The position numbers were made by a program, and so were the translations under genes. From a bacterium (GTDB taxonomy: Bacteria > SAR324 > NAC60-12), in the NCBI GenBank assembly GCA_965205865.1, contig CBDBHR010000030.1:832001-896000 (forward strand): a stretch of 64,000 nt of DNA, in the 5' to 3' direction. Within the stretch, counting starts at the first letter, position 1. The number at the start of each line of letters is the position of its first letter. Shown here in pieces: positions 19,803-57,536 of this stretch. The notes beneath the pieces are model-generated. The model was not told the origin of the DNA and ran no database searches. It worked only from the letters and a program-made list of their open reading frames with translations.

Positions 19803-19865
19803 TGGTGGAGGTGGCGGGAACGGTCCGCCGCTGCGACGGTCCGTCGTTACGGTCGAAGCCGCGTC
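19803..19865 (-). other. tmRNA (ssrA) 3'-end fragment, att-like, with 32-bp T-loop insert (copy 1)
   Basis: Minus strand reads GACGCGGCTTCGA-[32 bp]-TTCCCGCCACCTCCACCA. Confidence 0.75.
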
Positions 19866-19959
19866 AATCCCTTGATTAACAAGGTTTTGCAGGGGGTTTT
19901 AATCATTTGCTAATCCTTGGTTATTGGCTTTGGCGGCCTCATAGATGAGGGAGAGCCTC

Positions 19960-20901
19960 CTAAGAGAAAGGATTGATCAGTCTGGCGAGGAATCCTCTTT
20001 TGCGTTTCCTCTTTGCGGCGCCGTAACTGCCCTGACCACCCCGCAGCCGGGGGTCGAGCAGGTCTCTCACTGCGTCGCCGAACATGTTGAGGGAGTAGAC
20101 GACAATTGTCAGGAAAAGCCCCGGCCAGAAGGCCAGCCAGGGCGCTTGCTCCATGAACCGGCGCCCTTCGCGGCTGAGCATCCCTCCCCAGCTGGGCACC
20201 CCGGTGGGCAGACCGAATCCCAGGAAGCTCAGAGAGGCTTCGGCAATGATGACCCCGCCAATGTTAATGGAGAAGATGATGATGAGGGGCGCCATAATAT
20301 TGGGCAGCACATGGCGGCTCAGGATTTGGCTTGTAGAGGTGCCCACGGCCTGGGCTGCCAGAAAATAGTCATTCTCTTTGATAGCGATCACGGCGCTTCT
20401 GATGACTCTTGAGCCCCCGATGCCTCCGGTGATGCCCAGGACCACGATGATCTGGAGGAGCCCCTCTCCCACAAGCAACATGATGGTCAACAACAGCAGC
20501 AGTCCCGGGAAAGCCATCCAGGCATCGACAAAGCGCTGCACCGCCAGGTCCACTTTCCCCCCCAGGAATCCGGAAGTGACGCCGATCAGGACAGCGACGA
20601 GCACATTGAGTGTGGTCGCGGCCAGACCAACCAGCATGGAAACCCGAGCCCCGTAGATCAGGCGGCTCAACAAGTCTCGCCCTATATGGTCGGTCCCCAG
20701 CAGATACTGGACGGATGAGCCCGTCATCCGGTCTCTCAGGTGCATTTCATCAAAGGGATAAGGCGCCAGCGCATCGGCAAAGAGCGCCACCACAATCAAG
20801 AGCAAGACGATCATCCCGCAGGCCGTCCCCAGGGGCTGCTCCTTGAGCAGCCTGAACAGGAAATCCGCCAGCCGTCCCCGTCGCCTGGGCTCATTATTCA
20901 T
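19960..20901 (-). CDS. DppC-like permease
   Basis: Full-length paralog; start overlaps the dppB stop. Confidence 0.92.
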   Translation of the reverse strand: MNNEPRRRGRLADFLFRLLKEQPLGTACGMIVLLLIVVALFADALAPYPFDEMHLRDRMTGSSVQYLLGTDHIGRDLLSRLIYGARVSMLVGLAATTLNVLVAVLIGVTSGFLGGKVDLAVQRFVDAWMAFPGLLLLLTIMLLVGEGLLQIIVVLGITGGIGGSRVIRSAVIAIKENDYFLAAQAVGTSTSQILSRHVLPNIMAPLIIIFSINIGGVIIAEASLSFLGFGLPTGVPSWGGMLSREGRRFMEQAPWLAFWPGLFLTIVVYSLNMFGDAVRDLLDPRLRGGQGSYGAAKRKRKRGFLARLINPFS

Positions 20902-21850
20902 ACCGCACCCTCGGGTCCAAGTAAGCATAAATCAGGTCGATCATGAGATTGATCCCCACCACCGCAGTGGCGAAGAGCAGGTTGATTCCGGAGACCACCG
21001 GGTAGTCTCTGATTTCGAGGGCATCCAGTAAGAGACGACCTGTCCCCGGCAGGTTGAATATGTTCTCCATGATAACGGAGCCGCCTACAAGGATAGGCAA
21101 CTGCAGGCCGATCAGGGTAACTACCGGGATGAGGGCATTTTTGAGGGCGTGCCGGATCACCACGATCCGCTCTTTGAGCCCCTTGGACCAGGCGGTCCGG
21201 ATATAGTCCTGCCTGAGCACCTCCAGCATCATGGTGCGCGTCATCCGCATGGTGGCGGCCGCTGAAGCCGTCCCCAGAATCAGGCTGGGAATGAGGAACA
21301 TCCCCAGATTGCCCAGCGGGTCTTCGGAGAAAGGAATCAGCTGCATCGGAGGCGACCAGCCCCACCAGATTACCGGATAGATCATGACCATAAGTGCCAG
21401 CCAGAAGTTCGGCGTTGCCAGGCCGATGATGGCGAAGGAGCGCCCCAGGTAGTCGGCGGCCGTATTCTGGCGAATCGCCGAGTAGATGCCCACCGGCAGT
21501 GCGATCAGGAATCCAATGACGAGGGCCAGGACGCCAAGCTCAATGGTTACCGGCAATCTGTCGAGTATCTTCTCCTCTACTGTAAAACCGCCAAGCAGTG
21601 ATTCGCCAAGGGTACCGCGCAGAACGATACCTCCCACCCAGCGTCCATACTGCACCCAGACAGGCACGTCTAATCCCAGCTTACGCTCAAGAGCTTCACG
21701 GTCGATGTGCCCACCCATCCACTGCAAATCTCCAACCATGATGTCGATGATATCGCCGGGGATGAAGCGGACCGAGAGAAAGACGAGGATGGTCAATATA
21801 AACAAGGTGGGGATTATCAGCAATAAGCGCCTGATGATGTAGGCTCTCAT
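20894..21850 (-). CDS. DppB-like permease
   Basis: Full-length paralog. Confidence 0.93.
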   Translation of the reverse strand: MRAYIIRRLLLIIPTLFILTILVFLSVRFIPGDIIDIMVGDLQWMGGHIDREALERKLGLDVPVWVQYGRWVGGIVLRGTLGESLLGGFTVEEKILDRLPVTIELGVLALVIGFLIALPVGIYSAIRQNTAADYLGRSFAIIGLATPNFWLALMVMIYPVIWWGWSPPMQLIPFSEDPLGNLGMFLIPSLILGTASAAATMRMTRTMMLEVLRQDYIRTAWSKGLKERIVVIRHALKNALIPVVTLIGLQLPILVGGSVIMENIFNLPGTGRLLLDALEIRDYPVVSGINLLFATAVVGINLMIDLIYAYLDPRVRYE

Positions 21851-21859
21851 CTGAAACCC

Positions 21860-23689
21860 CTAATGACCCATTGCTTCCTTCAGCTCACTATCAATCCAGA
21901 CACGGGCGAAGATGACAAGTCGGTGCTGGGCCCCAAAGTGGACTTCTCCGTTATAACCTTTGACCCACGGCTGGATCGCCATGTACTTTCCAGTTTTGGG
22001 ACCCCATACATAATATTGCTGCTCTATCAGGAGCATGTCTAACTCCTGCGCCAGCCTCTGCTGCTCTGCAATCGAGGTAGTGGTTTCAGCCTCTTCAATC
22101 ATGGCGTCTATCTCAGGGGTGTTCATATTGGCAAGGTCCCAAATTGATGTCGAGTGAGTGCGAAAGCGTAGAACCCCTAAACCACCATTAGGATGATTCC
22201 AGCCCTCAATTGTCATAATAATACCTTCCATAGCGCGCTCCGTTACCAGAGGGATAAACTGAGGTCGGTCCAAGTCCCTAATCTCTACATCAACGCCAAT
22301 TTCCTTCCAGTATTCGGCGACTATTTCAGTATAGCCCAAATCGAACTCACGGAAGTGGTTCAAGACCGTCTCGAAGCCATCGGGATAGCCAGCTTCCGCC
22401 AGAAGCTGCCTCGCCCCTTCCGGGTTATAGGCATAGCCTTTCTTGACCTCGGCGGGCCACTCGTCAAACGGGACGTAAAACCCCTTCAAGCCCTCCCCTA
22501 CGCTCCCCTGAGGTTTCCACATTGCAGTGCCCTTGTAGTGGGTATCGCTAATGGTCTTTAGGTCCAATGCCATCTGCATCGCCTTGCGCACCCTGATGTC
22601 GTCAAACGGCGGCTTGGTCGAGTCAAAGCTGTAAGTGGTTTCCGCACGATCCCACCACGGGAGCAGCTCGATTTCAGGGTTGGTGCTTCTGAGGCTCTCG
22701 ATAATGTCGACCACTAAAATATCAGAGGAATGAGCAGGGAAACCGAGGAAATCGATCCTACCGGCGCGAAGTCCCGCTATGCGTGTGGCTTCCTCTTTAA
22801 TAATCAGGCCCTGTAACTGGTCAAAGTAGGGCAGGCGGTTCTCCGGGTACTTTTCGTCGAAGCCCCAGTAGTCAGGATTCTTGGTATAGGTTATAGAGCT
22901 GCCCTCGACCCAGTCAGTCAGCTCATAGGGCCCGGTGCCGACCAGGTTCCTCCAATCCTTAACGTCGCCGTATTGCTTGATTACCTCGGGGGGCAATATA
23001 GATGCTTGATTATCAACCATGATCGAATGCAGTGCAGCGGGGCTAGGTTGCTTCAGCTTAAAAACAACCGTCCATTTGTCGGTGGCCTCTACCGATTCGA
23101 ATATTGTCATGCTGGCGAGCGGGCCAACATAGCCTCCAGGCGGTTCGGTGAAGCCGCTGCCCAGACCCAACACGCGGTGATAGTTGTATTCTACGTCCTT
23201 GGCAGTTAGCTCCCGACCGTTCATCGGTGGCTTATCATGCCAGTGAACGCCCTGGCGGATGTGGAAGGTATAGGTCAGCCCGTCCGGGGAAATATCCCAG
23301 CTTTCAGCCAGTTGCCCTACCGCGAGCTCTACCGGGATGTACTGGCTCGAGAAGGCATATTCGTCCCTATCCACTGCCCAATTGGGGATGAGTAGCTGCT
23401 CTGCAACGCCAGCGATGACCGTTCCTGCGCCGCCGTGCATAACTGGATCCGTGTGCGGCGGGGCGCCTACAGCGGCATAGGTGAACGTCCCGCCATACTG
23501 TGGCGCGGACACCACCTCGCCAGTGCTGGGATCCGTCACATACTTCTTCTCAGCAGCAGCCGCCGGGCTGACCCAGAGGGTCGCGCCCAGAATGAAAGCC
23601 AGCAGCACCGAGAGGAGTTTCATGGCAGACCTGGGGCCTGCCGGGTTCAGCCCCACGAAGGAGGCGACAAGTTTTTTTATAATACTCAT
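21860..23689 (-). CDS. Family-5 SBP with constant leader MSIIKK...
   Basis: GAGG RBS before ATG at 23689; SBP family-5 motifs. Confidence 0.9.
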   Translation of the reverse strand: MSIIKKLVASFVGLNPAGPRSAMKLLSVLLAFILGATLWVSPAAAAEKKYVTDPSTGEVVSAPQYGGTFTYAAVGAPPHTDPVMHGGAGTVIAGVAEQLLIPNWAVDRDEYAFSSQYIPVELAVGQLAESWDISPDGLTYTFHIRQGVHWHDKPPMNGRELTAKDVEYNYHRVLGLGSGFTEPPGGYVGPLASMTIFESVEATDKWTVVFKLKQPSPAALHSIMVDNQASILPPEVIKQYGDVKDWRNLVGTGPYELTDWVEGSSITYTKNPDYWGFDEKYPENRLPYFDQLQGLIIKEEATRIAGLRAGRIDFLGFPAHSSDILVVDIIESLRSTNPEIELLPWWDRAETTYSFDSTKPPFDDIRVRKAMQMALDLKTISDTHYKGTAMWKPQGSVGEGLKGFYVPFDEWPAEVKKGYAYNPEGARQLLAEAGYPDGFETVLNHFREFDLGYTEIVAEYWKEIGVDVEIRDLDRPQFIPLVTERAMEGIIMTIEGWNHPNGGLGVLRFRTHSTSIWDLANMNTPEIDAMIEEAETTTSIAEQQRLAQELDMLLIEQQYYVWGPKTGKYMAIQPWVKGYNGEVHFGAQHRLVIFARVWIDSELKEAMGH

Positions 23690-23821
23690 AATAACCTCTT
23701 TTATTTGAGGGTTTTGAGAATGATTCACCCGCTGTGGGGCGAATCGGAGTTTCGCGGCGGGCACGGCGCCTGCCACGGGGAACTCTCTGCAGAGGGCGAA
23801 AAGTTTCTTCGCGAGCATCTT

Positions 23822-24125
23822 CATCCGGACTATTTTTTTGACCAGAATGGGTCTTTTTTGAGGAAAATGAGCGTTTGGAAACCGAGCCCTTCTATTTATA
23901 TAACGTACCAAGAGCCAGAATCTGACAAAAAAAATCTGACAAAAAAAATCAAATTTTCTCAAAAATTCCCCGAAATCGCTTTCTTTTTTTGACCAGAATG
24001 GGTCTTTTTTGAGGAAAATGAGCGTTTGGAAACCGAGCCCTTCTATTTATATAACACACCAAGAGCCAGAATATCACCAAAAAAATCAAATTTTCTCAAA
24101 AATTTCCTGAAATTGCTTTCTGGCG
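23822..24125 (-). repeat. Tandem promoter repeats (2 units) between sigma and SBP
   Basis: GACCAGAATGGGTC...CCAAGAGCCAGAAT...TCAAATTTTCTCAAAAAT twice; extra 14-bp duplication at ~23921-23948. Confidence 0.9.
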
Positions 24126-24650: not shown

Positions 24651-24816
24651 CGTATAACCACTGTAACGCTTCTTCAAAAGCAATCCCACTCGGATTATTC
24701 CGAATTTTTCGATCTCTTTTTTTCTTTTTACTCATACTTTAAGCCTCCGTGCAACAAATACTATAGGGGATTTAGCCAGTATTAGCAAAAAAGATTTTTT
24801 GAGATTCTATGAAGTA

Positions 24817-25121: not shown

Positions 25122-25340
25122 ATGATTGTTAATGTGGAAGAAATATTAGAAGCATCTCTCAACCTGCCGGCAATAGAAAGAGCAGATCTTATAAATCATC
25201 TGCTATCCAGCTTAGATGTACCCGATAAAAGCATAGATGGGGTCTGGCAGAAGGAAGTCGAAGAAAGAATTGAAGCATATCGCAAAGGGCATCTCACCTC
25301 TATTTCTCTCCAAGACGTTCTTTCAAAATACCAAAAATGA
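25122..25340 (+). CDS. Addiction-module antitoxin (TIGR02574-like)
   Basis: LPAIERADL...W..EVE.R; overlaps the toxin start. Confidence 0.8.
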   Translation: MIVNVEEILEASLNLPAIERADLINHLLSSLDVPDKSIDGVWQKEVEERIEAYRKGHLTSISLQDVLSKYQK

Positions 25341-25639
25341 AAGAGATTCGATTCTTAAAAGTTGCAGAGCAGGAATTTGATGAAACTGTTAAGTATTACA
25401 ACGCAGAATCACCAGGACTTGGCACTAAATTTATAGTTGAGGTCGTTAAATCTCTTGAACGTATTCAACAATTTCCTGAAGCTTGGCACCCCTTCACACA
25501 AAATGCTAGACGATGTCAAATCAGACGATTTCCTTATGGTATAATTTATCAAATACTTGAGAAGGAAATTCTGATTGTTGCAATTGCCAATTTACATAGA
25601 AAACCAGACTACTGGATAAAGAGGCTTAAAGAAAAATAG
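25337..25639 (+). CDS. RelE/ParE-family toxin
   Basis: RRFPYGIIY, IVAIANLHRKPDYW. Confidence 0.88.
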   Translation: MKEIRFLKVAEQEFDETVKYYNAESPGLGTKFIVEVVKSLERIQQFPEAWHPFTQNARRCQIRRFPYGIIYQILEKEILIVAIANLHRKPDYWIKRLKEK

Positions 25640-27999: not shown

Positions 28000-28358
28000 T
28001 GACCACCGGCTAAAGCCGGTGGCTTATTATTGTGAACGCCTCAAAGGCTATTTATTGGGTCCCCCCGAGGGGTCCGATTCAGTCTCCCCCAGGTGAAGGT
28101 GAGAAAACCCCGGAGGGGTGACAGGGCATAGCCCAGCCATTGATGGCTGGGATAGGCCACAAAACGTTTTTAGTCCCAGAGGGACGACACTTTTTCTTCA
28201 GTGCGCTTTCAGTGTCGTCCCTCCGGGACTGGATCCCCCATCACAATCGGTCCCCAGCCATCAATGGCTGGGCGATGACCTTTCGTCCCTCCGGGACTAA
28301 AATATGACTGCTGCGCACGGTCAAACCTATATGGGTCCCCCACCAAAGGTGGGGGTTT
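28000..28358. mobile_element. IS200/IS605-like non-autonomous remnant with nested REP pair
   Basis: End hairpins CCACCGGCTAAAGCCGGTGG and CCCCACCAAAGGTGGGG; inner GTCCCTCCGGGAC and CCCAGCCAT..ATGGCTGGG hairpins. Confidence 0.55.
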
Positions 28359-34674: not shown

Positions 34675-35565
34675 TTAAACATCTGGATCAATTCCTGCTT
34701 TTTTCAAGATTTCTCTGAGATGTTTTTCTTTAGCTTCCGCCTCTTCCTTATCTTGCACCGCCTCTTCCTCTCTCCGCAGGGCTTCTTCCTTAACTTGCAC
34801 CGCCTCTTCCTCCCTCCGCAGAGCCTCTTGTTTATCTCGTAGAGCCTCTTCTTTGTCTTGTAGGGCATCTTCTAAAAGTTGTTGCCTTGTTTGTTCTTCA
34901 CGGATGGCATTTTGACGGGCTTGGTATAAATGATAATTCGCTTCTTTTTCTGAAAATCTCTCCAGGACTGCCATGGCTTGCCTCATTTCAGGGGTGTTGA
35001 TGATTTCAGGTAATTCCTCCCAATGCTCAGCTTCTTTAAAAAAATATAACCATTGATCTTCTGTTTTCAAGGTCTCGGAATACCGCCATTTTTCCAATTC
35101 CAAAACATGGACTGAGCAATGCTCCGATAATCGTTTTTGGTTCTCTTGATCCACCAGTTGGAAGTGATGATGAAATGCCGGACTCTCAGGAATCAGGTTT
35201 TCAGTCAACATCCAAATGGAGATAACCGGACGTAATTCTGAGAATGGCTCCCCGCTTTGTAACTGGGACTGATAGATATCACTCCACGTATAGAGAATCC
35301 TCTCCGGCAAATAGGAAAAAACCGCCAATTGAATTTCTATCTGATAGGCCGTCCCTTTTTCATCTTTGGCTTTCACATCGACAATCGTCAACTTGTCCGA
35401 ATAAAACTCGCGTTCATTGTAGGGGTTGAGGATTTCGACATCCGAGATGGGAAACTGGGCTGCCAGGACACCGTTGAGGAAATCAATCAGTAAGTTCTCA
35501 TTTTCCTCTGCCCCCAAAATGGCCTTGTAGACACAATCGACTGTCGGAGAAATGCGATGTTTCAC
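34675..35565 (-). CDS. Rpn-family PD-(D/E)XK nuclease / putative transposase
   Basis: D..YKAILG, DVKAKD...QIEIQ; C-terminal EEALRREEEAVQxK repeats; GAGGAG RBS before GTG at 35565. Confidence 0.88.
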   Translation of the reverse strand: MKHRISPTVDCVYKAILGAEENENLLIDFLNGVLAAQFPISDVEILNPYNEREFYSDKLTIVDVKAKDEKGTAYQIEIQLAVFSYLPERILYTWSDIYQSQLQSGEPFSELRPVISIWMLTENLIPESPAFHHHFQLVDQENQKRLSEHCSVHVLELEKWRYSETLKTEDQWLYFFKEAEHWEELPEIINTPEMRQAMAVLERFSEKEANYHLYQARQNAIREEQTRQQLLEDALQDKEEALRDKQEALRREEEAVQVKEEALRREEEAVQDKEEAEAKEKHLREILKKAGIDPDV

Positions 35566-36086
35566 AATGATACTCCTCAAAGAAGGGAACAAGAGAGCAC
35601 TTGTTTTCAATCAGTATATCAAAGCGTTTGGGCATGACAAGCCTCAATATCCTCTACCTTCAAATTCGGAAAATCATCAATGATTTCATCAGCGTTATCG
35701 CCACTGGCTCTCTGAAGGCAACATCTTGGTAGATTTTCCCGCAATCCCTTGAAAAATCAAGGGAGTCTCCGGTCATAAAGGAACCGAACCGACAAACTCC
35801 TCGAGAAAAAGATATTGGCCTTCTTCCAAAAGAGGAAAGTTTTAAGCAGAGCAGAACTGAAAGAGTTTTCCCGGTTATCTCAGCGGACCCTCGAAACGCG
35901 TGCCGAATGGGCATCAGTCCTTGAAATGATTCGCTCTGCATCCCCTGCTTTTCGTTCCGGGAAGGGCAGGATTGCCCCTTATTTTCAAGGACTGACACAG
36001 AGAGCAGCGAGGATCAAGTCCTGGATGAGACAAGCACTCGTCACTGAGAAGTTAAGAGGAGCAAAAAAGCTGTTTTTTCTTCCGCG

Positions 36087-36290
36087 TCAAGTATCGTTTT
36101 TGACTCCAATCCATTCCCTCGCGTTCATCCCACCGCCAGTGACGAGACAATGAATATGAGGATGAAGCTGAAGGGTTTTGGTCCAGGTGTGAAGGGTGGC
36201 GATGATTCCCGGTTTGGCTCCCAGGTACTTGGCATCTTCCAATAGTTCAAAGAGCGTCTCACGAGCACAGTCAAAGAGAATCTTACCCAT
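36087..36290 (-). pseudogene. IS91-family transposase fragment (copy 2)
   Basis: Identical peptide to 19563-19766. Confidence 0.8.
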
Positions 36291-36326
36291 GATTTTTTGG
36301 CGCGTCGCGTAATAATAAAAGTAAAT

Positions 36327-36389
36327 TGGTGGAGGTGGCGGGAACGGTCCGCCGCTGCGACGGTCCGTCGTTACGGTCGAACCCGCGTC
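36327..36389 (-). other. tmRNA 3'-end att-like fragment with T-loop insert (copy 2)
   Basis: GACGCGGGTTCGA-[32 bp]-TTCCCGCCACCTCCACCA. Confidence 0.78.
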
Positions 36390-36483
36390 AATCCCTTGAT
36401 TAACAAGGTTTTGCAGGGGGTTTTAATCATTTGCTAATCCTTGGTTATTGGCTTTGGCGGCCTCATAGATGAGGGAGAGCCTC

Positions 36484-37452
36484 CTAAGAAAAGGGGTTGA
36501 TCAGTCGGGCGAGGAATCCTCGTTTGCGTTTCATCTTCGCAGTGCCGTAACTGCCCTGACCTCCCCGCAGCCTGGGGTCAAGCAGGTCCCTCACCGCATC
36601 GCCGAACATGTTCAGACTGTAAACGGTAATAGTCAGGGCAAGGCCGGGCCAGAGCGCCAGCCAGGGGGCCATCTCCATGAACTCCCGCCCTTCCCGGCTG
36701 AGCATCCCTCCCCAGCTGGGAACCTTGAGGGGCAGCCCGAATCCGAGGAAGCTCAGCGATGCCTCGGCAATGATGACCCCGCCAATGTTGATCGAGAAGA
36801 CGATGATGATCGGCGGCATAATATTGGGCAGGACATGGCGGGTCAGGATATGGCGCGTGGGGGTGCCCACAGCCCTGGTTGCCAGAAAATAGTCATTCTC
36901 TTTAATACCCACCACGGCGCCACGGATGACTCGGGAGCCGCCAATACCTCCGGCGATCCCCAGGACCACGATGATCTGGAGGAGCCCCTGTCCCACGATG
37001 GACATGATGGTTAACAACAGGAGCAGACCCGGAAAAGCCATCCAGGCATCGACAAATCTCTGCACCGCCAGGTCCAATTTGCCACCAATGAATCCTGAAG
37101 TGCCGCCGATCAGGACCGCCACCACCACATTAACAGCGGTCGCTGACAGACCGACGACTATCGAAAGACGAGCCCCGACGATCAGGCGGCTCAGGAGGTC
37201 TCTCCCCAACTGGTCGGTACCCAGGAGATACCGGGCTGAGGAGCCAGTCAGCCGGTCTGCCAGGTGCATTTCCCAATATGGATAAGGAGCCAGAACATTG
37301 GCAAAGATCGCCACCAAAATGAAGAGCAAGACGATGATTCCGCAGAACGTCCCCAGTGGCTTCTCCCTCCACAGCCTGGTAAAGAAATCAGCCAGCCCGG
37401 CACGTCTCTTTGGCTCACTTTCTGCTGATGATATCCCTGTGGCATCACTCAT
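36484..37452 (-). CDS. DppC-like permease
   Basis: Full-length paralog. Confidence 0.92.
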   Translation of the reverse strand: MSDATGISSAESEPKRRAGLADFFTRLWREKPLGTFCGIIVLLFILVAIFANVLAPYPYWEMHLADRLTGSSARYLLGTDQLGRDLLSRLIVGARLSIVVGLSATAVNVVVAVLIGGTSGFIGGKLDLAVQRFVDAWMAFPGLLLLLTIMSIVGQGLLQIIVVLGIAGGIGGSRVIRGAVVGIKENDYFLATRAVGTPTRHILTRHVLPNIMPPIIIVFSINIGGVIIAEASLSFLGFGLPLKVPSWGGMLSREGREFMEMAPWLALWPGLALTITVYSLNMFGDAVRDLLDPRLRGGQGSYGTAKMKRKRGFLARLINPFS

Positions 37453-42740: not shown

Positions 42741-42944
42741 ATGCAATATACAGTAGATACTCAAATCAACGAAGGTCATTTAGAATTAAGTAATCTTCCA
42801 TTTGAAGATGGTTCAGCAGTGAAAGTGGTATTAATCCCGAAAGCATCTTTATCGAAGATGTTATTTCAAAAAGCTCAGGAACTCACCAAAAATATTGAAG
42901 GAAATCTTTCAGATGATATCACTGATGAAAGAGCAGAGAAATGA
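42741..42944 (+). CDS. Putative antitoxin upstream of PIN toxin
   Basis: Small ORF overlapping the toxin start (ATGA). Confidence 0.65.
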   Translation: MQYTVDTQINEGHLELSNLPFEDGSAVKVVLIPKASLSKMLFQKAQELTKNIEGNLSDDITDERAEK

Positions 42945-43417
42945 ATCTATTCTTAGACACTAGTGCCGTTATTAAACTTTATCATAAAGAGAATGGGTCT
43001 GAGGAACTTGTTGATATACTTCTTCAATATGAAGAGGATTTGGTTCTTACGATTTCTGATATATGTAAAATCGAATTTCATTCAGCCTTTTTAAGAAGAG
43101 TCAGAACAAAAGAAATAGATCGGGAAATTATTGAGCAGGTTTTCCAATATTTTGAGCAAGATTTGGCATTTTATCATATTGTGGAAGTCAACGACAAAGT
43201 AAAACAATCTGCGCTCAGCTTACTTGACGAAGTAGCTTGGGAAAAAGGTTTAAGAACATTGGATGCAATTCAATTAGCCTCAGCTCTGACTGCCCAAAAT
43301 TGGTTACCAATAGCCTATTTCATCAGCGCAGATCAAAAACTTCTCAAGATTGCTAAAGAACATTTTACAGTATTCGATCCAGAAACAAGAAAAACAGAAC
43401 AAGACGCTGGAGCTTAG
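42941..43417 (+). CDS. vapC: VapC/PIN-domain toxin
   Basis: FLDTSAVIKLY, LRTLDAIQLASA, SADQKL. Confidence 0.88.
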   Translation: MNLFLDTSAVIKLYHKENGSEELVDILLQYEEDLVLTISDICKIEFHSAFLRRVRTKEIDREIIEQVFQYFEQDLAFYHIVEVNDKVKQSALSLLDEVAWEKGLRTLDAIQLASALTAQNWLPIAYFISADQKLLKIAKEHFTVFDPETRKTEQDAGA

Positions 43418-44539: not shown

Positions 44540-44601
44540 GGATAATTAATAATTCCCCGACTCTAACTCCCTTGCGACCCGATTGGAGAGAGTGTTTGCT
44601 G

Positions 44602-45571
44602 CTAAGCGAAGGGGTTGAGCAGTCTGGCGAGGAATCCTCGTTTGCGTTTCACCATCGCAGATGCCGTAACTGCCCTCACCTCCCCGCAGCCGGGGATCCA
44701 GCAGGTCCCTCACCGCGTCGCCGAACATGTTGAGGGAGTAGACGACAATCGTCAGGCAAAGCCCCGGCCAGAGAGCCAGCCATGGCGCCTGCTCCATGTA
44801 TCTGCGCCCTTCCCAGCTGAGCATACCTCCCCACTCAGGAATCGAGGCTGGCAGACCGTATCCGAGGAAGCTCAGAGCGGCCACACTCAGGATCACCCCC
44901 CCGATGTTGATGCTAAATATGATGATTACGACAGGCATAATATTGGGCAGGACGTGCCGGATAAGCGATCTCATTTTGGTACTGCCAATTGCCCGCGCCG
45001 CCAGAAAGTAGTCATTCTCTTTAATGCCGATAACGGCGCCTCTGACTACTCTTGAGCCGCCGATGCCTCCGGCTATCCCCAGGACCAGTATTATCTGTGG
45101 CACACCCCTCCCCGCTATGGACATTATGGTTAACAAAATTAGCAGTCCCGGGAAAGCCATCCAGGCATCGACAAAGCGCTGCACCACCAGGTCCAATTTA
45201 CCACCAAGGAATCCTGAAATGCCGCCTATCAGGACAGCGACGACAACATTGAGAGCGGTCGCGGCTAGACCGACAATTAACGAAATACGAGCCCCGTAGA
45301 TAATGCGGCTCAAGAAGTCTCGCCCAAACTGGTCGGTACCCAGCAGATACTGGGCTGATGCGCCCTGAAACCTGTCTGCCAGGTGCATTTCACGATATCC
45401 ATAAGGGGCCAGAACATCGGCGAAGATAGCGACAAAAATCAATATCAATATAATAATCCCGCTGATAGTACCTAGTGGCTTCTCCCCCCACAGCCTGATA
45501 AAGAAATCAGCCAAGGCGTTGCGTCTCTTCGTTTCCGCTTCTTGTACCGGGATATCTCTAACCTGACTCAT
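44602..45571 (-). CDS. DppC-like permease with a frameshift in the C-terminal tail
   Basis: Intact to GEGSYG; the conserved KRKRG..NPFA* tail is in another frame. Confidence 0.8.
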
Positions 45572-45575
45572 CCAA

Positions 45576-45858
45576 CTACCTGTACCGGACCCTGGGGTCA
45601 AAATAGGGATAAATCAGGTCGATAAACAGATTGACCCCCACAACCGCGGTGGCGAAAACCAGGTTTACTCCGGAGACCATCGGGTAGTCTCGTTCCTCGA
45701 GTGCATTCACCATCAAACGACCGAGCCCCGGCAGGTTGAAGACGTTCTCCATGATCACGGAGCCGCCGATCAGGATAGGCAACTGCATGCCGATCAGGGT
45801 AACTACCGGGATGAGGGCATTTTTGATGGCGTGCCGCACGACAACCACCCGCTCCTTC
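45576..45858 (-). pseudogene. 3' dppB fragment
   Basis: KERVVVVRH...DPRVRYR. Confidence 0.85.
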
Positions 45859-45953: not shown

Positions 45954-48040
45954 GTGTTACCCAGTGGGTGCTCACAGGAACATATGTGAAATTCCCATCA
46001 GACCAAAGTTTAGCCAACAGGTCAGTAGCGAAATCCGCGTGCGTCACAGTAATGTGGGGTATGAAGCCGGATAGAGCAAGAGTGTAGGCCGCGTGATTGA
46101 GCCTCGAAATAGAAATTGTTGTGGTTTGTATAACTCCCTCAGAGGACTATGATGGAGGAAAGCCGACGGCGTTCAAGTGTCGGAAGGCAGCAGTCCGAGT
46201 GTGCATTAGGGCTAGCACGAGGACACCACCGGGGTCGAAGAGCGGGGCATGCGCTTACAGGGGTAGCTCGGGAACTTGGGAGAACCTGTTGTCTCCATGC
46301 CTAAAATCGCCGGAAGCAAGGTGTACCGGCTTACCAAGAGACCTGGCGTTAGGGGGCGGCTTCCAGCCTCCTGACGAGTCCCAGTGGGAAACACAAAGAA
46401 GAGAAAGCGGGCAGGGTATCGGAAAGCAAGTCTAAACAACGAGCGATTTGAGAGGGGCAATGAGGTAGTCTTAGCGGAACATAGTACCGATGATTAGAGC
46501 CTTAAGGCTGTGATTGAGAAAGTGGGGAACGGAGACCCAAGGGACCCATCGTAGGGAAGGTGAAGCCGGGCATAACGTTCAGTCGAACAGAACTATAGGA
46601 GAAACTTTGAGTTCACTAACTATCTCAACAAAACTTCGACAGATTGCAGAGCAAGCCAAAGGCAATCCTGGAATGATTTTTACCAACTTAGCCCACCACA
46701 TGGACGTTGACTTTCTGCGAGAGGCGTATCGCCGGACCCGTAAATCGGGAGCACCGGGGGTGGACAAGGTGACTGCGAAAGACTATGAGCAGAACCTTGA
46801 AGCAAACCTTCTCGACTTGCATGAACGCTTGCGTAGTGGACGGTACGTAGCGCCGCCGGTTAAACGTGAGTGGATTGACAAGGAAGATGGTTCAAAAAGG
46901 CCGTTGGGGTTGCTAACGTTTGAAGACAAAATCGTTCAAAGGGCCGTTCTGATGCTGTTGGAAGCGATCTATGAGCAAGATTTCCATGACGTTTCCTATG
47001 GTTTTCGGATCAAACGTGGACCCCAGAAAGCACTCAAGGAGCTACGGGAAGAGTGCATGAGGGGGAACGTGGGATGGATACTGGATGCCGATATCAGTGG
47101 ATTTTTCGACAATTTGGACAAAGGCCAGTTGCGAGAATTTATCAAGCAACGGGTCAACGACGGCGCGATATTGCGGTTGATAGGAAAATGGTTGAATGCG
47201 GGGGTCCTGGACGGAATCACCCTGACTCATCCCGAGACGGGGACTCCACAAGGGGCGGTCATTTCACCAATCCTGGCCAATATCTACCTGCATTATGTCC
47301 TGGATGAATGGTACCTAAAAGAGGTCAGACCTCGTCTAAGAGGCAGAAGCAACCTGGTTCGTTTTGCTGATGACTTTGTCATCAGTTTTGAACAGGAAGC
47401 CGACGCCCAAAGAGTGATGGCCGTCTTGCCTAAACGATTTGCTCGCTTTGGCTTGATGATACATCCTGAGAAAACGAAGCTGATTGCATTCAGAAAACCG
47501 GTAGCCAATACGATTGCCGGCAAAGGAAAGGGGACCTTCGACTTCTTAGGATTCACCCATTACTGGGCCAGATCACGCTTTAGTTATTGGGTGATCAAGA
47601 GGAAGACAGCTTCCAAACGAATGAGACGAGCAATGAAGCGACACTGGCAATGGTGCCGGGGCAACCGGCATTTGCCACTGGAGGAACAGTACAAAGCTCT
47701 CTGCCAGAAACTACGCGGATACTACCAATATTTTGGGGTTCGTTGCAATATGCAACAGCTCAAGGTGGTGTACAAACATGTGGAAGAGGCATGGAAGTAT
47801 TGGCTGAGCCGACGCAGTCGCAAAGGAACGGTCTCTTATGAAAAGTTGGAAAAGCTGAGACTCATTTTTCCGCTCCCGAAACCCAGGATCGTCCACGACA
47901 TCTAAACAGGCTTGCAGGGTAGTAAAGTTATGCGTTAGAGGGGTACCAATCCCTCTAATTACCGAGGAACCGTATGAGCGAATTGTTCACGTACGGATCT
48001 GCGGGGGGGCTGGTTGGGTAACCACTGGCTCTACCCGGAC
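45954..48040 (+). mobile_element. Group II intron (5' boundary approximate)
   Basis: Domain V GAACCGTATGAGCGAATTGTTCACGTACGGATCTG and domain VI ending CTCTACCCGGAC just after the RT ORF. Confidence 0.85.
46514..47905 (+). CDS. ltrA: Group II intron reverse transcriptase/maturase, no endonuclease domain (start uncertain)
   Basis: APGVD, KRPLG, DADISGFFD, GTPQG..ISP, RFADD, FDFLGF, LRGYYQYF. Confidence 0.92.
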   Translation: MRKWGTETQGTHRREGEAGHNVQSNRTIGETLSSLTISTKLRQIAEQAKGNPGMIFTNLAHHMDVDFLREAYRRTRKSGAPGVDKVTAKDYEQNLEANLLDLHERLRSGRYVAPPVKREWIDKEDGSKRPLGLLTFEDKIVQRAVLMLLEAIYEQDFHDVSYGFRIKRGPQKALKELREECMRGNVGWILDADISGFFDNLDKGQLREFIKQRVNDGAILRLIGKWLNAGVLDGITLTHPETGTPQGAVISPILANIYLHYVLDEWYLKEVRPRLRGRSNLVRFADDFVISFEQEADAQRVMAVLPKRFARFGLMIHPEKTKLIAFRKPVANTIAGKGKGTFDFLGFTHYWARSRFSYWVIKRKTASKRMRRAMKRHWQWCRGNRHLPLEEQYKALCQKLRGYYQYFGVRCNMQQLKVVYKHVEEAWKYWLSRRSRKGTVSYEKLEKLRLIFPLPKPRIVHDI

Positions 48041-52424: not shown

Positions 52425-52479
52425 TTCTAAACAAAATAGAACCTCTGGGCGGCACTCCCCCTCCTCCAAAAAGACCCAT

Positions 52480-53354: not shown

Positions 53355-53616
53355 TTTGAAGGCTTGAACACTAGCCTGGGGAGTTTCTGAGTTCCCACTC
53401 AATCTGTGTGCCTTGGCAGGTCGCACTAATTTGCCTGTCCCCTTTTGTCCCCTTTTCTGAGCATCCCTCCCCAGCTGGGAACCTTGGGGGGCAGACCGAA
53501 GCCGAGAAAGCTCAGCGAAGCACTCCGCCGCCGTACGTCGTTCGGCTGCCAAGAAAAACCCTCCCGTCCGCGATGCGGATGGGAGGGTCCGAAAACGGTT
53601 AGCTGCTTCTTGGCTA

Positions 53617-55458
53617 CTAAAACCCCATTTCCTTCTTCAGCTCCTGGTCAATCCAGAGGCGGGCGAAAACGATCATGCGGTTAGCACCATCCAGAGTGGT
53701 TTCACCGTTATAACCTTTGACCCACGGCCAAGACGCATTGAACTCCGGTACTTTCGTACCCCACAGCAGCAAGTGGTTCTCTACAATGTACATATTTGCC
53801 TCTTTAACCGCCCGCTGCTGCTCCTCAATAGTCTGCGCCGCTACGACGGCTTCATACAAGGCCTCATACGCCGGGTTCATGCCTCCGGGCAAGTTCATCC
53901 CTTGTACCGAAAAGGGCCGTATTGACCCGAGCACATTAGGATAATCTAAGCCCGAAACCGTCCAGGCCAGACCTTTAAAATCATGTCCTGAGGAAACACG
54001 AGCGGCATAAGTAGGGGCGTCCACGACATCAATCGCTACCTCAACGCCAATCTTCGCCCAGTAGGCGACCACTAATTCGGTATAGTCCACGTTCTGGTGG
54101 ACAACGCTGTGGACGACATCGGTCTTGAACCTCACGCCGTCCGGGCCACGTGGATATCCAGCCTCATCCAGGAGCTCCTCGGCCCTTTTCGGGTTATAGG
54201 TATATTCTTGCTGAAGCGCTTCGGGCCACTCTTCAAAGGGGGTGTTGTACCCAACGACGCCATCCCCAATGCGGCCCTGAGGTTTCCACAATCCGTAGCC
54301 GTTATAGAAGGTGTTGTTAATGGTCTCGTGGTCCAGCGCCATCTGCATGGCCTTGCGAACCCTGATGTCGCTAAATGGTGACTTGGTCGTTTCCACAGCA
54401 TAAGCCGTATTAGACCGGTAGGCAAACGGCCAAAGCTCGATTTCGGGGTTGGTCCGGTGGAGGCTCTCTACCTGGTCGGTAGACTGGATAACAGTACCGC
54501 CGGGGTAACCTATGATATCAACCCTACCCGAGCGGAGTGCCGCAATATATGTTGCCTCTTCTTTCATAATCAGCGTACTTATCTCGTCAATATAGGGCAA
54601 GCGGTTCTGGGGGTATTTTTCGTCGGTGCCCCAGTAGTCAGGATTCTTGGTCCAGGTCATCGAGCTGCCCTCGAGATAGTCCGTCAGCTCATAGGGACCG
54701 GTGCCGACTACGTTCCGCCAATCCTTCATGTCACCGTATTGCTCGATGACCTCGGGGGGCAGTACATATTGAGTAAAGTGGTCTAGGAACTGCAACAGCA
54801 GACCGAGTCTTGGTTCTTTCAGTTTGATCACAACCGTCCATTTGTCGGTGGCCGTTATCGATTCGACCGGTTCGCCAGCCCACGGCCAATAGAGTACCGG
54901 TGGCTTGTTTTCCGCTGTGAAACCGCTGCCCAGACCGAATGCTCGGTGCAAGTTGTATTCGACATCCTTGGCAGTCAGCTCCCGACCGTTCATCGGTGCC
55001 TTGTTATGCCAGTGAACGCCCTGGCGGATGTTGAGGATGATAGTTAGTGGGTCGGGTTGCGACCAGCTTTCCGCCAACTGCCCTTTCATGGCAAACAGAG
55101 GACGAAACACGGGTGATCTAATGTCAAGTTCGTTCCGATCAATTCCCCAGTTCACGATGGCGAGCGTCTCTACCACACCACCGATGCCAAACATCGCCCA
55201 AGGATGGAACAAGGAGTCAAAATTCGGAGGCGGGATCTTCGAAGCATAGGTCAATCTCCCGCCATACTCTGGCGCGGTCACCACCTTGCCGGTGGAGGGG
55301 TCGGTCACGTACTTCTTCTCCGCAGCGGCTGTCGGGCCGACCCAGAGGGTTGCGCCCAGAATGAAAGCCAGCAGCACCGAGAGGAGTTTCATGGCAGACC
55401 TGGGGCCTGCCGGGTTCAGCCCCACGAAGGAGGCGACAAGTTTTTTTATAATACTCAT
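53617..55458 (-). CDS. Family-5 SBP with constant leader (no adjacent permease)
   Basis: MSIIKK start; SBP family-5 motifs. Confidence 0.9.
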   Translation of the reverse strand: MSIIKKLVASFVGLNPAGPRSAMKLLSVLLAFILGATLWVGPTAAAEKKYVTDPSTGKVVTAPEYGGRLTYASKIPPPNFDSLFHPWAMFGIGGVVETLAIVNWGIDRNELDIRSPVFRPLFAMKGQLAESWSQPDPLTIILNIRQGVHWHNKAPMNGRELTAKDVEYNLHRAFGLGSGFTAENKPPVLYWPWAGEPVESITATDKWTVVIKLKEPRLGLLLQFLDHFTQYVLPPEVIEQYGDMKDWRNVVGTGPYELTDYLEGSSMTWTKNPDYWGTDEKYPQNRLPYIDEISTLIMKEEATYIAALRSGRVDIIGYPGGTVIQSTDQVESLHRTNPEIELWPFAYRSNTAYAVETTKSPFSDIRVRKAMQMALDHETINNTFYNGYGLWKPQGRIGDGVVGYNTPFEEWPEALQQEYTYNPKRAEELLDEAGYPRGPDGVRFKTDVVHSVVHQNVDYTELVVAYWAKIGVEVAIDVVDAPTYAARVSSGHDFKGLAWTVSGLDYPNVLGSIRPFSVQGMNLPGGMNPAYEALYEAVVAAQTIEEQQRAVKEANMYIVENHLLLWGTKVPEFNASWPWVKGYNGETTLDGANRMIVFARLWIDQELKKEMGF

Positions 55459-55589
55459 AATAACCTCTTTTATTTGAGGGTTTTGAGAATGATTCACCCG
55501 CTGTGGGGCGAATCGGAGTTTCGCGGCGGACACGACGTCTGCCACAGGAAGCTCTCCAAGAGGGCGAAAAGTTTCTTCGCGAGCATCTT

Positions 55590-55872
55590 CATCCGGACTA
55601 TTTTTTTGACCAGAATGGGTCTTTTTTGAGGAAAATGAGCGTTTGGAAACCGAGCCCTTCTATTTAACGTACCAAGAGCCAGAATCTGACAAAAAAAATC
55701 AAATTTTCTCAAAAATTTCCTGAAATTGCTTTCTTTTTTTGATCAGAATGGGTCTTTTTTGAGGAAAATGAGCGTTTGAAAACCGAGCCCTCCTATTTAT
55801 ATAACGTACCAAGAGCCAGAATATCACCAAAAAAATCAAATTTTCTCAAAAATTCCCCGAAATCGCTCTCTG
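55590..55872 (-). repeat. Tandem promoter repeats (2 units)
   Basis: Same unit; proximal copy has a small deletion beside the -10 box. Confidence 0.9.
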
Positions 55873-56441
55873 GCGCGGTACAACTGTTGGGCGATCCGGT
55901 GCTTTTCCGTTTGGCTCAGTTCCTCTATGGGAAGCGCCAACTCCTCGGCGGCAAGGGCTTGCAGGGACAGCCTGTCCCAATAGCAGCGGCGCAGCAGCCG
56001 AGCGGTCTGGGGATGCTCGTCTTCCAGTTGTCTCAGGGCCCCTCCTACCCGGTCAATCTTCTCTTCCTGCAATTCCGCCGACTGGGCCTCCCACCAGGCC
56101 TGCATAGAGCGCAGCTCATCCACCTCTTCCGGGGCAGCGACTTCCGGCTGCCGTTTGGCACGTCTGATTTGGTCCAGCAGATGATTCTGAACGACTCTGT
56201 ACAGCCAACCCTGGAAGGCTTTATCGGCCTCGCCTTGGAATTTCTCCAGCTTGCTCTCCCACAAATTCTTCCAGATTTCCTGAACCACCTCATCCGTCTG
56301 ATGGAGGCTCCGATACTTGCCAATCAGCGATTGGGCAGTGTGGACGATATATGCCCTGTAGTGTTGGTACAACTCCTCAAAAGCGTCTTCCTTCCCTTGA
56401 ACGGACCCCTCCAGCAGTTCCCGCAATGTTTTCCGGTTCAT
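55836..56441 (-). CDS. ECF-type sigma factor (intact)
   Basis: 201 aa, near-identical to 51352-51957. Confidence 0.85.
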   Translation of the reverse strand: MNRKTLRELLEGSVQGKEDAFEELYQHYRAYIVHTAQSLIGKYRSLHQTDEVVQEIWKNLWESKLEKFQGEADKAFQGWLYRVVQNHLLDQIRRAKRQPEVAAPEEVDELRSMQAWWEAQSAELQEEKIDRVGGALRQLEDEHPQTARLLRRCYWDRLSLQALAAEELALPIEELSQTEKHRIAQQLYRARERFRGIFEKI

Positions 56442-56780
56442 CGTTGGACTCGGTTTTGAGTTTCAGCCAAGAACGCACAAGAACAGCCTCAATATAGGAA
56501 AAGCAAGAGGGAAACGCAAGGTGGGGAAAACCGGCCTTGCCGTGGAAACCGTTTGCAACTGATTTGGAGTCCTTTTTGTTCTAATTGTTCGGCGACTGTC
56601 ATAAGAACCTCGTGAGCCTCTTCATAGCTGAGCAGGTTTTTCACTTGCTGAACCACTTCCTCTTCTTTGAGGTGGGAACTGGCTTTGAATAAATAGTAGA
56701 GTACCTCCTCAAGATACCGCAAACCACTGCCTTCTTCAAATAGTTTTTCAAACAAAGGCCAGATGACCGTGGCTAATTGA

Positions 56781-57062
56781 ATGAAAGGTGGCTACGCGCC
56801 ATGGGCCTTCACCAGTCCCGTTCTTGAGAAGCTGGTCATCGGGAACTGGGCAATAGATAGAGAAGAACATGGCTGGAATACAACGTACGTACCTCTCTCC
56901 ACCCTAAAAGGGGCACTGGCTGAAAGCTGGGAAATGCCCGACGCCACAACGATAGTCTACCACATCCGCCAGGGCGTTCACTGGCACAATAAGCCCCCAA
57001 TGTCCAGTCGGGAGCTAACTGCCGATGATATCGTATTTAACTATCATCGTTATTTTGGTCTG
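56781..57062 (+). pseudogene. Inverted internal SBP fragment ending at the MITE (shorter copy at 33750-33808)
   Basis: VLEKLVIGNW...LAESW..VHWH..NYHRYFGL. Confidence 0.85.
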
Positions 57063-57338
57063 AAATCCGGGGACAGTTACTAATTAATTGCAATGGATTC
57101 CTTCATTTGATAATGGTTGTAAATAATTATCGAGCATTGAATTTTCACTTCAGCAATGGGAGGTAAGCTAGCCAGGTTAGCGAGAGTGGTACTTCCAGGG
57201 GTCCCCCATCATGTCACCCAAGGAGGGGTTCGCTCCATAAAAATCTTTTCAAGTGACGAGGATCGCAGAGAGTATCTCTCTCTGCTCAACGCGCATGGAG
57301 AAAAAGAAAGATAAAAATTAGTAACTGTCCCCGGATTT
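57063..57338 (+). mobile_element. 276-bp RAYT-derived MITE (copy 2)
   Basis: Identical to 52149-52424. Confidence 0.88.
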
Positions 57339-57377
57339 TTTGATTTTTTGGCGCGTCGCGTAATAATAAAAGTAAAT

Positions 57378-57440
57378 TGGTGGAGGTGGCGGGAACGGTC
57401 CGCCGCTGCGACGGTCCGTCGTTACGGTCGAACCCGCGTC
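57378..57440 (-). other. tmRNA 3'-end att-like fragment with T-loop insert (copy 3)
   Basis: Same 63 bp; TTTGCTAAT direct repeat at 57472-57491. Confidence 0.78.
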
Positions 57441-57536
57441 AATCCCTTGATTAACAAGGTTTTGCAGGGGGTTTGCTAATCATTTGCTAATCCTTGGTTA
57501 TTGGCTTTGTCGGCCTCATAGATGAGGGGGAGCCTC

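Follow-up and report, generated by a model that had tools for sequence, protein, structure and literature searches.

A displaced, interrupted tmRNA gene tail at the ends of dppC transporter modules in a SAR324 genome

A tmRNA-like unit behind four dppC genes

The window, a 64,000-nt stretch of contig C30 in the 4.74-Mb host genome (G000), carries three transporter modules, each with a gene for a dppC-type permease: module 1 at 19960-20928 on the minus strand (Pfam BPD_transp_1 and OppC_N), with homologues in the other two modules at 36484-37452 and 57537-58505. Behind each stop codon lies a constant minus-strand spacer of 50 nt (19911-19960, 36435-36484 and, with 2 mismatches, 57488-57537), followed by a unit of 124 nt (19787-19910 and 36311-36434) or, in copy 3, of 126 nt (57362-57487). 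Within the spacer of copy 1 lie the ribosome-binding site and opening 10 codons (MRPPKPITKD) of a small ORF, the intact form of which is found at locus L017 of the sister species (genome G001). The 124 nt common to all copies consist of a 45-nt left part, a 63-nt part resembling the 3' end of a tmRNA gene (T-arm, acceptor 3' strand and CCA), and a 16-nt AT-rich tail. The tmRNA-like part (19803-19865, 36327-36389 and 57378-57440) is identical in copies 2 and 3, and copy 1 has a single T-stem substitution (G>C); within the tmRNA-like part sits a GC-rich insert of 32 nt (19821-19852, 36345-36376 and 57396-57427).

The preliminary description of the window had placed this element, nearly identical, at three module ends, and exact matching confirms it: the 18-mer TTCCCGCCACCTCCACCA has exactly three minus-strand occurrences in the window (19803-19820, 36327-36344 and 57378-57395) and none in 100 shuffled sequences. 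A fourth copy of the 63-nt element lies outside the window at G000:C15:15265-15327. The genome-wide count is thus four copies besides the tmRNA gene (ssrA) itself, which is on contig C25, and even with up to 2 mismatches the 18-mer finds only ssrA and these four in the whole genome. The copies of the 124-nt unit are 98.4-100% identical to the one on C15. Those in the window lie about 850-890 kb into the 1.38-Mb contig C30, at spacings of 16.5 and 21 kb. Beyond the unit, copies 1 and 2 continue into a truncated IS91-family transposase gene in the same orientation, 36 nt after the CCA (19563-19766 and 36087-36290, both minus strand, 100% identical to each other); in copy 3 about 8 nt of this fragment remain, the shared stretch ending at 57341, where the upstream region of the next module begins. 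Since the window copies share the junction between unit and transposase fragment, they derive from one rearranged ancestor.

Repeats in the spacer region had also been described as possible integrase arm sites. The repeat TTTGCTAAT (GATTAGCAAA on the minus strand) is indeed present, but it is single in copies 1, 2 and C15 and double only in copy 3, where 2 extra bases create the second; with 14 occurrences of the 10-mer genome-wide, no convincing arm-site array emerges.

The distribution of the unit among dppC genes bears on how it spread. It stands behind only 4 of about 91 dppC paralogues, and these four do not form a clade: their common ancestor covers 94 of 131 leaves of the tree, and each has closer relatives that lack the element. 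Between the element-bearing modules, sequence identity jumps at the stop codon, from 64-94% to 96-100%. The identity step and the scattered position of the genes in the tree together indicate that the flank moved independently of the modules, contrary to the earlier suggestion that modules and element had been amplified in tandem as one. Neither the sister species nor any of the remaining approximately 87 dppC paralogues has the unit, and no tmRNA-like piece was found behind dppC homologues of other genomes (0 of 80 loci).

The host ssrA gene and the att-site reading

The host ssrA gene was located with Rfam (178.7 bits) and ARAGORN (tag ANNADYLPADLALAA) at G000:C25:246474-246851, and its 3' end, GACGCGGGTTCGA followed by TTCCCGCCACCTCCACCAATTT, was compared with the element. 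The match is exact over 13 + 22 nt, including 4 nt past the CCA, so that the proposed origin from a tmRNA gene 3' end is borne out and can be assigned to the host's own gene. The ssrA-derived part represents the last 35 nt of the gene (T-arm, acceptor 3' strand and CCA); the ATTT that follows the CCA is found in 1 of 31 ssrA loci of the family, namely that of G000. Identity is interrupted between A58 and T59 of the T-loop, in all four copies, by the 32-nt insert (CCGTAACGACGGACCGTCGCAGCGGCGGACCG), which begins 2 nt past a GTTC tetranucleotide and expands the T-loop to 39 nt, compared with 7 nt in standard tmRNA. The 45 nt to the left of the block are dissimilar to ssrA.

The last bases of a tRNA or tmRNA gene, copied away from the gene, are a familiar product of tyrosine integrases, and the preliminary description had read the three copies as ends of an ssrA-targeted island, while correctly recording that neither an integrase nor a complete ssrA lies in the window. 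Neither of the partners that such an island should leave beside ssrA, a tyrosine integrase and matching arms, was found. The genome has four PF00589 matches (C4, C28, C26 and C29), none of them near ssrA or any copy and none on C15; the neighbours of ssrA are pnp and an alcohol dehydrogenase gene. Neither arm of the block, the flanking 45 nt included, occurs anywhere in the genome outside the four copies; 12-mers of the block occur nowhere else on C25, including downstream of ssrA; and the fragments are on other contigs, not 3' of the intact gene, so the arrangement with an island between them is absent. The identity block, expected to run uninterrupted, is broken by the 32-nt insert in all four copies, and none of the 87 other genomes searched in the phylum shows a split ssrA pattern of this kind. 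Excision junctions were sought in Logan contigs of 4 runs, which keep the unit intact and contain no joint that skips unit or insert; such contigs drop rare variants, so this result carries little weight.

Three further candidates were set aside. The ssrA-downstream flank of G001, considered as an attR partner, has only distant paralogues in G000 (69-76% identity) and was not found next to any copy there. The 12-mers of the block that occur near the C29 integrase lie in coding DNA and match by chance. Weak RF00023 matches elsewhere in the genome proved, where inspected, to be ordinary tRNA genes, except for one locus without a tRNA call.

These results lend no support to the att-site and tandem-island reading, and the tmRNA-like site is a relic without mobility function today rather than a working integration site. 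A historical version of the same idea deserves separate weight: the fragment may be an att relic, either attP or a displaced part of attR, from an ssrA-targeting tyrosine-integrase island, stranded later, with the IS91 adjacency incidental or secondary and IS91 or recombination having only moved the fragment. The att blocks of tDNAs are grouped by sublocation class. Blocks reaching from the foot of the T-arm to beyond the gene end are usual among them according to the abstract of the Islander paper (PMC4383910), and the block here has that extent. The two genomes, G000 and G001, stay collinear up to and including the CCA of ssrA and part directly behind it; the G000 T-loop reads ATT, compared with ACT in the closest relatives; 7 of 31 family ssrA loci end at a contig break within 13 nt of the CCA, a hint of a variable hotspot at ssrA; and the unrelated 45 nt upstream of the block could be taken for a P arm. 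Set against the missing integrase, block fragment and arm copies, the interrupted block with no counterpart in the phylum, and an "arm repeat" that is single in three of four copies, these points leave the relic a possible but rather doubtful origin.

An interrupted small gene and remains of an IS91-family element

The C15 copy reveals the junctions of the insertion. In G001, loci L017 and L019 read GGATTA followed by CTGGGGGC inside an intact 80-aa ORF, for which Pfam gives sub-threshold zinc-ribbon hints only. In G000, the C15 copy carries a 196-nt insertion at the GGATTA junction that contains the element, after which the rest of the ORF continues with 88% amino acid identity; the dppC gene on C15 is the nearest relative of that at L017 (distance 0.093). 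The unit begins at the junction just after ...AAGGATTA. TTA is present on both sides of the insertion, and the bases after its right end are CTGG, not the canonical CTTG or GTTC; flanks of IS91 relatives themselves show no consistent tetranucleotide either.

Two other readings of the unit were weighed. The 196-nt form could be an autonomous-looking, MITE-like element targeting TA or TTA, its tmRNA similarity captured or mimicked; the TTA at both junctions would suit this, as would a subterminal inverted repeat read by eye, with GATTAAAACC set 6 nt in from the left end and GGTTTTATC 9 nt in from the right. Only one full copy exists, however, the window copies having the left 124 nt alone, and no more copies occur in the genome, phylum or metagenome collections, which makes such an element highly improbable. 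The unit might instead be a functional 3'-UTR RNA of the transporter operon, mimicking a tRNA-like acceptor/T-arm and bearing an additional hairpin, selected for processing, stability or termination. It does have the orientation of the operon, about 95 nt past the stop codon, its copies are 98-100% identical where the coding DNA is 64-94% identical, and it is unchanged in the Logan contigs of the 4 runs, which come from 4 studies; an insert between T-loop positions 58 and 59 might spare the T54-A58 pair. Yet Rfam returns 0 matches even at E <= 10 and ARAGORN 0 genes, the 5' acceptor strand GGGGGTG is missing, the sole predicted pairing being 5 bp of GGAGG/CCTCC at the flank start, and the T-stem pair broken in copy 1 is uncompensated. 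The 63-nt fold is no better than shuffles (z -0.55), the whole 173-nt flank reaches only z -2.5, and a terminator-like site was not found. With a unit that interrupts a gene and is missing from the sister species and from almost all dppC paralogues, a selected RNA is likewise highly improbable.

The sequence next to the unit points to an insertion sequence. The fragment in copies 1 and 2 is truncated at both the 5' and 3' ends and retains 67 of about 390 residues (Pfam Y2_Tnp PF04986, E 2.7e-12); it aligns with residues ~111-177 of a 391-aa IS91-family transposase of Desulfoluna (BLASTP 54% identity, E 4e-24). The right end of the family is recognizable as well. Other paralogues in both species have the junction GGATTA/GCA followed by an IS91-type right (oriIS) end, and in one such type of flank (G000 C30:897385-897745 and G001 L014) spacer and GCA lead into the boxes TCCATAG, TGTCCAACAA..GATGAAGCGGA and TCCGCTTATCTAAATGGTT. 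The right ends of IS91 relatives, delimited by comparing multiple copies, share these boxes; the boxes also lie at the end of C15 and are absent from the three window copies themselves. As a general bracket of the modules the right-end relic was rejected, being present at only 3-4 places in the genome.

The left end is less well defined. As described in PMC13181058, terIS of the IS91 family lies upstream of tnpA and combines a subterminal palindrome with a neighbouring tetranucleotide, which is GTTC in IS801 and IS1294; adjacent DNA is mobilised by one-ended transposition, and transposition occurs without target duplication. In the unit, 2 nt separate GTTC from the 32-nt insert, which can pair but has a fold no better than shuffles (z -0.9), and the insert motifs TAACGACG and GGACCG loosely resemble ends of related IS91 elements, a likeness noticed post hoc. 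Compared with the ends of 46 IS91 relatives in other genomes, the 145 nt before the transposase fragment show no resemblance, and no tRNA- or tmRNA-like pieces were found near these relatives. An intact copy of the element, which would show its true left end, was found neither in G001 nor in G000, where the only other Y2_Tnp locus (C28) is broken; the present ssrA locus bears no IS91 trace. Two ideas about the insert as a repeat were discarded. Insert and unit are not a dispersed repeat, having four copies in the genome and none in contig collections (25- and 31-mers of the unit gave 0 matches in genome_contigs and metagenome_contigs, the latter with two 25-mers), and a BoxC-like GC-rich repeat does not fit, the genomic repeats (GGGGAGGGG-type) being unlike the insert.

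We tentatively favour, with somewhat less than even confidence, the hypothesis that the element corresponds to the left-end region of an IS91-family insertion sequence, now decayed, that carried a captured piece of the ssrA locus and was spread by ectopic recombination. An IS91-family element (HUH/Y2, rolling-circle) would once have resided just downstream of ssrA, only a few bases away, with its left (terIS) end towards the gene, and replication reading through terIS, that is, one-ended transposition, would have taken along the last 35 nt of ssrA and the ATTT. Capture perhaps halted at the T-arm, a hairpin holding GTTC, the tetranucleotide cleaved by the IS91 family. The element would then have inserted right after ...AAGGATTA, in the small gene behind one dppC paralogue, where internal deletions may have produced three decayed forms; ectopic recombination or gene conversion then probably copied the relic from there to three or more further module ends, with the left endpoint of exchange presumably inside the conserved stretch that encodes the C-terminus of dppC. 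Because the 45 nt left of the block are unlike ssrA, a single simple capture cannot account for the whole unit. A more specific version, which we regard as unlikely, is that the ssrA T-arm, a hairpin with GTTC in its loop, served as a surrogate terIS-like stop for an IS91 element 3' of the gene, so that the gene tail became the new left end, of which the 32-nt insert would be a remnant. If so, one-ended transposition would have natural stop signals in the T-arms of tRNA and tmRNA genes, and scattered 3' fragments of tDNAs, usually read as integrase scars, could also come from HUH transposases.

Comparison with known systems

Copies of tRNA and tmRNA gene tails routinely serve to map genomic islands and to infer integrase activity. 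Those at the module ends described here are better explained by a decayed rolling-circle insertion sequence and recombination among about 91 paralogous transporter modules, which calls for caution when islands are called in repeat-rich symbiont genomes. No new mobility system for transporter modules is revealed; what the locus offers is a hint, concrete enough to test, of tDNA tail capture by IS91-type elements.

Measured against a standard one-piece tmRNA (Rfam RF00023), the element retains the last 35 nt and has no 5' acceptor strand, tag reading frame or pseudoknots, and Infernal and ARAGORN are both blind to it. Displaced tmRNA and tRNA 3' fragments at island ends (Islander-type, and the tandem ssrA islands of Dehalococcoides, as portrayed in part of PMC3146451) resemble it in that a copy of the host ssrA 3' end lies away from the gene, oriented with the adjacent cargo, and the recurrence at 16.5 and 21 kb recalls a tandem island array. 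In contrast to those islands, there is no integrase here, the copies are on contigs other than that of ssrA, the block is split by 32 nt, and the flanks have been exchanged among non-sister modules rather than laid down by successive integration. With IS91, IS801, IS1294 and ISCR, as described in PMC13181058, the locus shares a Y2 (HUH) transposase fragment, family-typical right-end boxes, and foreign DNA on the terIS side of tnpA, the upstream side, from which one-ended transposition picks up flanking sequence; GTTC beside a GC-rich self-pairing stretch may be a further likeness. It differs from the same elements in being fragmentary, with no active copy or defined terIS, and in having TTA on both sides of the insertion in place of the canonical CTTG/GTTC; and where the typical cargo of ISCR elements is a resistance gene, the captured DNA here would be the tail of a tmRNA gene.

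Transporter modules and their conserved flank

Six minus-strand modules lie in the window, each made up of genes for an ECF sigma factor and a 640-760-aa family-5 binding protein together with dppB and dppC, and all without an ATPase. Three of the six terminate, as the preliminary description had it, in a minus-strand element located about 95 nt 3' of the stops of dppC-type permease genes (at 19960, 36484 and 57537) that reads GACGCGG(G/C)TTCGA-32 nt-TTCCCGCCACCTCCACCA (copies 1, 2 and 3, at 19803-19865, 36327-36389 and 57378-57440); its 18-mer matches three times in the window versus 0 in 100 shuffles. Genome search places a fourth copy at G000:C15:15265-15327, on another contig of the host genome, so that the genome-wide count proposed earlier comes to four copies besides ssrA. 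A tblastn search of the whole 4.74-Mb genome with dppC returned 146 HSPs, 91 of them spanning at least 285 of 322 residues; the element stands behind four of about 91 near-full-length dppC paralogues. Outside G000, the dppC genes have their closest relatives in, among others, MAGs of Spirochaetia, Dehalococcoidia and Tectimicrobiota (65-78% aa identity).

The element is contained in a 124-nt unit that occurs at four places in G000 with 98-100% identity; on its left are 45 nt, then come the 63 tmRNA-like nt and finally ATTTACTTTTATTATT. A 50-nt spacer next to the dppC stop occurs at five places. Past the unit the flanks part company: counted from the stop, copies 1 and 2 are alike over 416 nt (99.76% identity), and the stretch common to the flanks is 197 nt in copy 3 and 174 nt in C15. 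The spacer consists of an RBS and 10 codons (MRPPKPITKD) and is 100% identical in four of the five G000 copies (three of the five are in the window, at 19911-19960, 36435-36484 and 57488-57537, the last with 2 mismatches) and in all three copies of the sister species G001 (loci L014, L017 and L019), whereas the ssrA region is only 86% identical between the two genomes and the adjacent dppC coding ends about 88-90%; such identity across species implies either strong nucleotide-level constraint, or repeated conversion or transfer.

Other features are interspersed with the modules. Just 3' of the dppC of module 2, whose end is without the tmRNA-like unit, are two inverted matches to the Acido-Lenti-1 RNA motif (28106-28151, minus, and 28253-28298, plus), which at 46.5 and 42.5 bits both exceed the gathering score. 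A group II intron (45989-48040, plus; Rfam D1-D4 and D5/6 matches, RT ORF 46514-47905) is antisense within module 4, between dppC (44546-45601) and the binding-protein gene, and between modules are found a PD-(D/E)XK transposase (PDDEXK_2; 34675-35610, minus), a ParE-type toxin (25337-25639, plus) and a PIN-domain gene (42941-43417, plus).

An assembly artefact is excluded, because Logan contigs of four runs from four studies hold 57341-57514 intact. Three of the runs contain the variant of copies 1, 2 and C15, which is shorter by 2 nt. Joints skipping unit or insert were absent from the contigs of the four runs, contigs being blind to rare forms.

The match to ssrA and the integrase reading

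Neither ARAGORN nor Rfam finds a tmRNA or tRNA in the window, in agreement with the earlier remark that no complete ssrA lies there. The window corresponds to G000:C30:832001-896000; the host ssrA, sought as proposed with these tools, is on a different contig (C25:246474-246851; RF00023, 178.7 bits; tag ANNADYLPADLALAA) and terminates ...GTAGGACGCGGGTTCGATTCCCGCCACCTCCACCAattttacg. The element matches this 3' end without mismatch in two blocks, GACGCGGGTTCGA (13 nt) and TTCCCGCCACCTCCACCAATTT (22 nt, of which 4 lie past the CCA), which bears out its proposed tmRNA identity; the blocks are parted by CCGTAACGACGGACCGTCGCAGCGGCGGACCG, inserted in the T-loop, and similarity to ssrA stops upstream of GACGCGG. 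Because of this 32-nt insert, Infernal gives no report on the element at E <= 10. Even with up to 2 mismatches allowed, the 3' 18-mer is confined in the whole of G000 to ssrA and the four copies. Across 31 family ssrA 3' ends, conservation of T-arm and acceptor is widespread, while ATTT after the CCA is found in G000 only. The exact blocks, the private ATTT and the genome-wide uniqueness together indicate, at the level of sequence, that the fragment derives from the ssrA locus of this lineage or from DNA that recombined with ssrA.

The preliminary description took the sites for the end of an ssrA-targeted integrase island, a view that the genome does not support. PF00589 is found in G000 at four loci only (on C4, C28, C26 and C29), all of them away from ssrA, from the window copies and from C15, and neither arm has a second copy in the whole genome. 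The neighbours of ssrA are pnp on one side and, on the other, an alcohol dehydrogenase gene, beyond which come fragments of binding-protein genes and a DDE transposase; C25 holds no further block fragment, and the T-loop-split pattern is found in 0 of 87 other genomes of the phylum searched. That an older integrase made the fragment nevertheless seems to us doubtful rather than far-fetched. Three observations favour some ssrA-linked recombination: the collinearity of G000 and G001 extends through ssrA (86% identity), and right after the CCA the two sequences cease to be related (G000:C25:246851 and G001:C1:700561; loci L001 and L108, with family loci L112-L140), the T-loop reads ATT in G000 ssrA versus ACT in its closest relatives, and 7 of the 31 family ssrA loci meet a contig break within 13 nt of the CCA. 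The end of synteny at the CCA and the contig breaks suggest that ssrA may be a variable hotspot in the family.

An interrupted small ORF and IS91-family remains

G001, a single 4.26-Mb contig from the same genus, carries the spacer at three places with 100% identity, and the unit was not found in this genome, these three sites included. At L017 and L019 an intact 80-aa ORF, MRPPKPITKDYWGLY...CPVCGK..., has its RBS and first ten codons in the spacer. In the C15 copy, 196 nt stand between ...AAGGATTA and CTGGGGGC..., after which the remainder of the ORF follows (88% aa identity to the G001 ORF over 69 residues). When 131 dppC paralogues of G000 and G001 are placed in one protein tree, the C15 dppC is the nearest relative of the L017 dppC (distance 0.093), so that the two loci look orthologous, with the insertion apparently on the G000 side. 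The window copies hold just the first 124 nt of the 196. A functional 3'-UTR RNA is unlikely here: the unit interrupts a gene and is missing from the sister species, no model matches it, a T-stem change in copy 1 is uncompensated and no terminator is predicted.

Contig C15 itself (15,808 nt) contains two transporter modules, a group II intron RT/maturase gene and the fourth unit. Both its ends lie inside the same IS91-type right-end relic and would overlap by about 12 nt save for one extra A in a homopolymer; it may form a circle, or represent a tandem repeat that has collapsed.

In copies 1 and 2 a 67-aa ORF (19563-19766 and 36087-36290; Pfam Y2_Tnp, E 2.7e-12) begins 36 nt after the CCA in the same orientation as the element. 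Its counterpart in an IS91-family transposase of 391 aa is the stretch of residues 111-177 (54% identity, E 4e-24), the gene being truncated both 5' and 3'. About 8 nt of this fragment are left in copy 3, which indicates that the three window copies share one already rearranged ancestor. A third type of flank, type C, lies just outside the window (G000 C30:897385-897745) and at L014 of G001: the spacer is followed by GCA, also the opening three bases of the unit, and by about 270 nt ending ...TCCGCTTATCTAAATGGTT, beyond which the two genomes diverge. Its three boxes (TCCATAG; TGTCCAACAA..GATGAAGCGGA; and a terminal TCCGCTTA.CTAAA.G.T.) turn up again at IS91 right ends mapped from multi-copy relatives in other genomes, and also in the family member G010. 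The simplest reading would be a single IS91-family insertion after GGATTA, now represented by three deletion derivatives: left end plus transposase fragment (window copies), left end plus short right end (C15), and three bases plus right end (type C). An intact IS copy did not come to light: G000 has one other Y2_Tnp locus, on C28, which is broken; G001 has no Y2_Tnp-type transposase homologue at E <= 1e-5, and 3 of 44 other family genomes have distant ones only (40-61% identity).

Spread among paralogues and a possible origin

The preliminary description had whole modules amplified in tandem with their ends, which the dppC genes contradict. The four unit-bearing genes are not sisters, their common ancestor covering 94 of the 131 leaves, and both G001 (L026 and L052) and G000 contain genes that lack even the spacer yet are nearer to those of copies 1 and 2. 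Pairwise identity is 64-94% (50-nt windows) over the last 118 coding nt and steps to 96-100% from the stop codon onward; further upstream it is patchy, copy 3 and C15 having some tracts of 100% in common. Non-sister carriers and the step at the stop indicate that the flank was probably transferred between existing paralogues, its left endpoint falling in the conserved C-terminal coding end of dppC. Between the dppC of copy 3 (57537-58505) and that of C15 (G000:C15:14217-15170), 50-nt tracts of 100% identity stand within coding sequence 64-96% identical, a mosaic that appears typical of gene conversion between paralogues.

We tentatively hypothesize, with slightly less than even confidence, that the site is a relic: a now decayed IS91-family element would have carried an ssrA tail in its left-end region, and recombination would have spread this among paralogous transporter modules. 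The element would formerly have sat directly after CCAATTT, read-through would have taken up the ssrA tail, and the whole would later have landed behind a dppC gene, where the element decayed and its relic was copied by ectopic recombination. Two features fit poorly: the block is preceded on its left by 45 nt of non-ssrA sequence, so that a second capture or another origin is needed, and the 32-nt insert, which begins 2 nt past GTTC, is unaccounted for by capture. In folding, this insert does not surpass shuffles. Within it are TAACGACG and GGACCG; similar motifs, seen post hoc, lie at the right end of C15 and, in the G010 relative, near the left end.

In the IS91 family, terIS lies upstream of tnpA and oriIS downstream, terIS being a tetranucleotide (GTTC in IS801 and IS1294) beside a subterminal palindrome; failed termination, which affects 1-14% of events or more, mobilises DNA beside terIS, and transposition occurs without target duplication (PMC13181058). 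The ssrA piece starts at the base of the T-arm, a hairpin with GTTC in its loop, and ends 4 nt into the ssrA 3' flank. As in IS91 one-ended transposition, it lies upstream of and co-oriented with tnpA, exactly the position that captured DNA would take.
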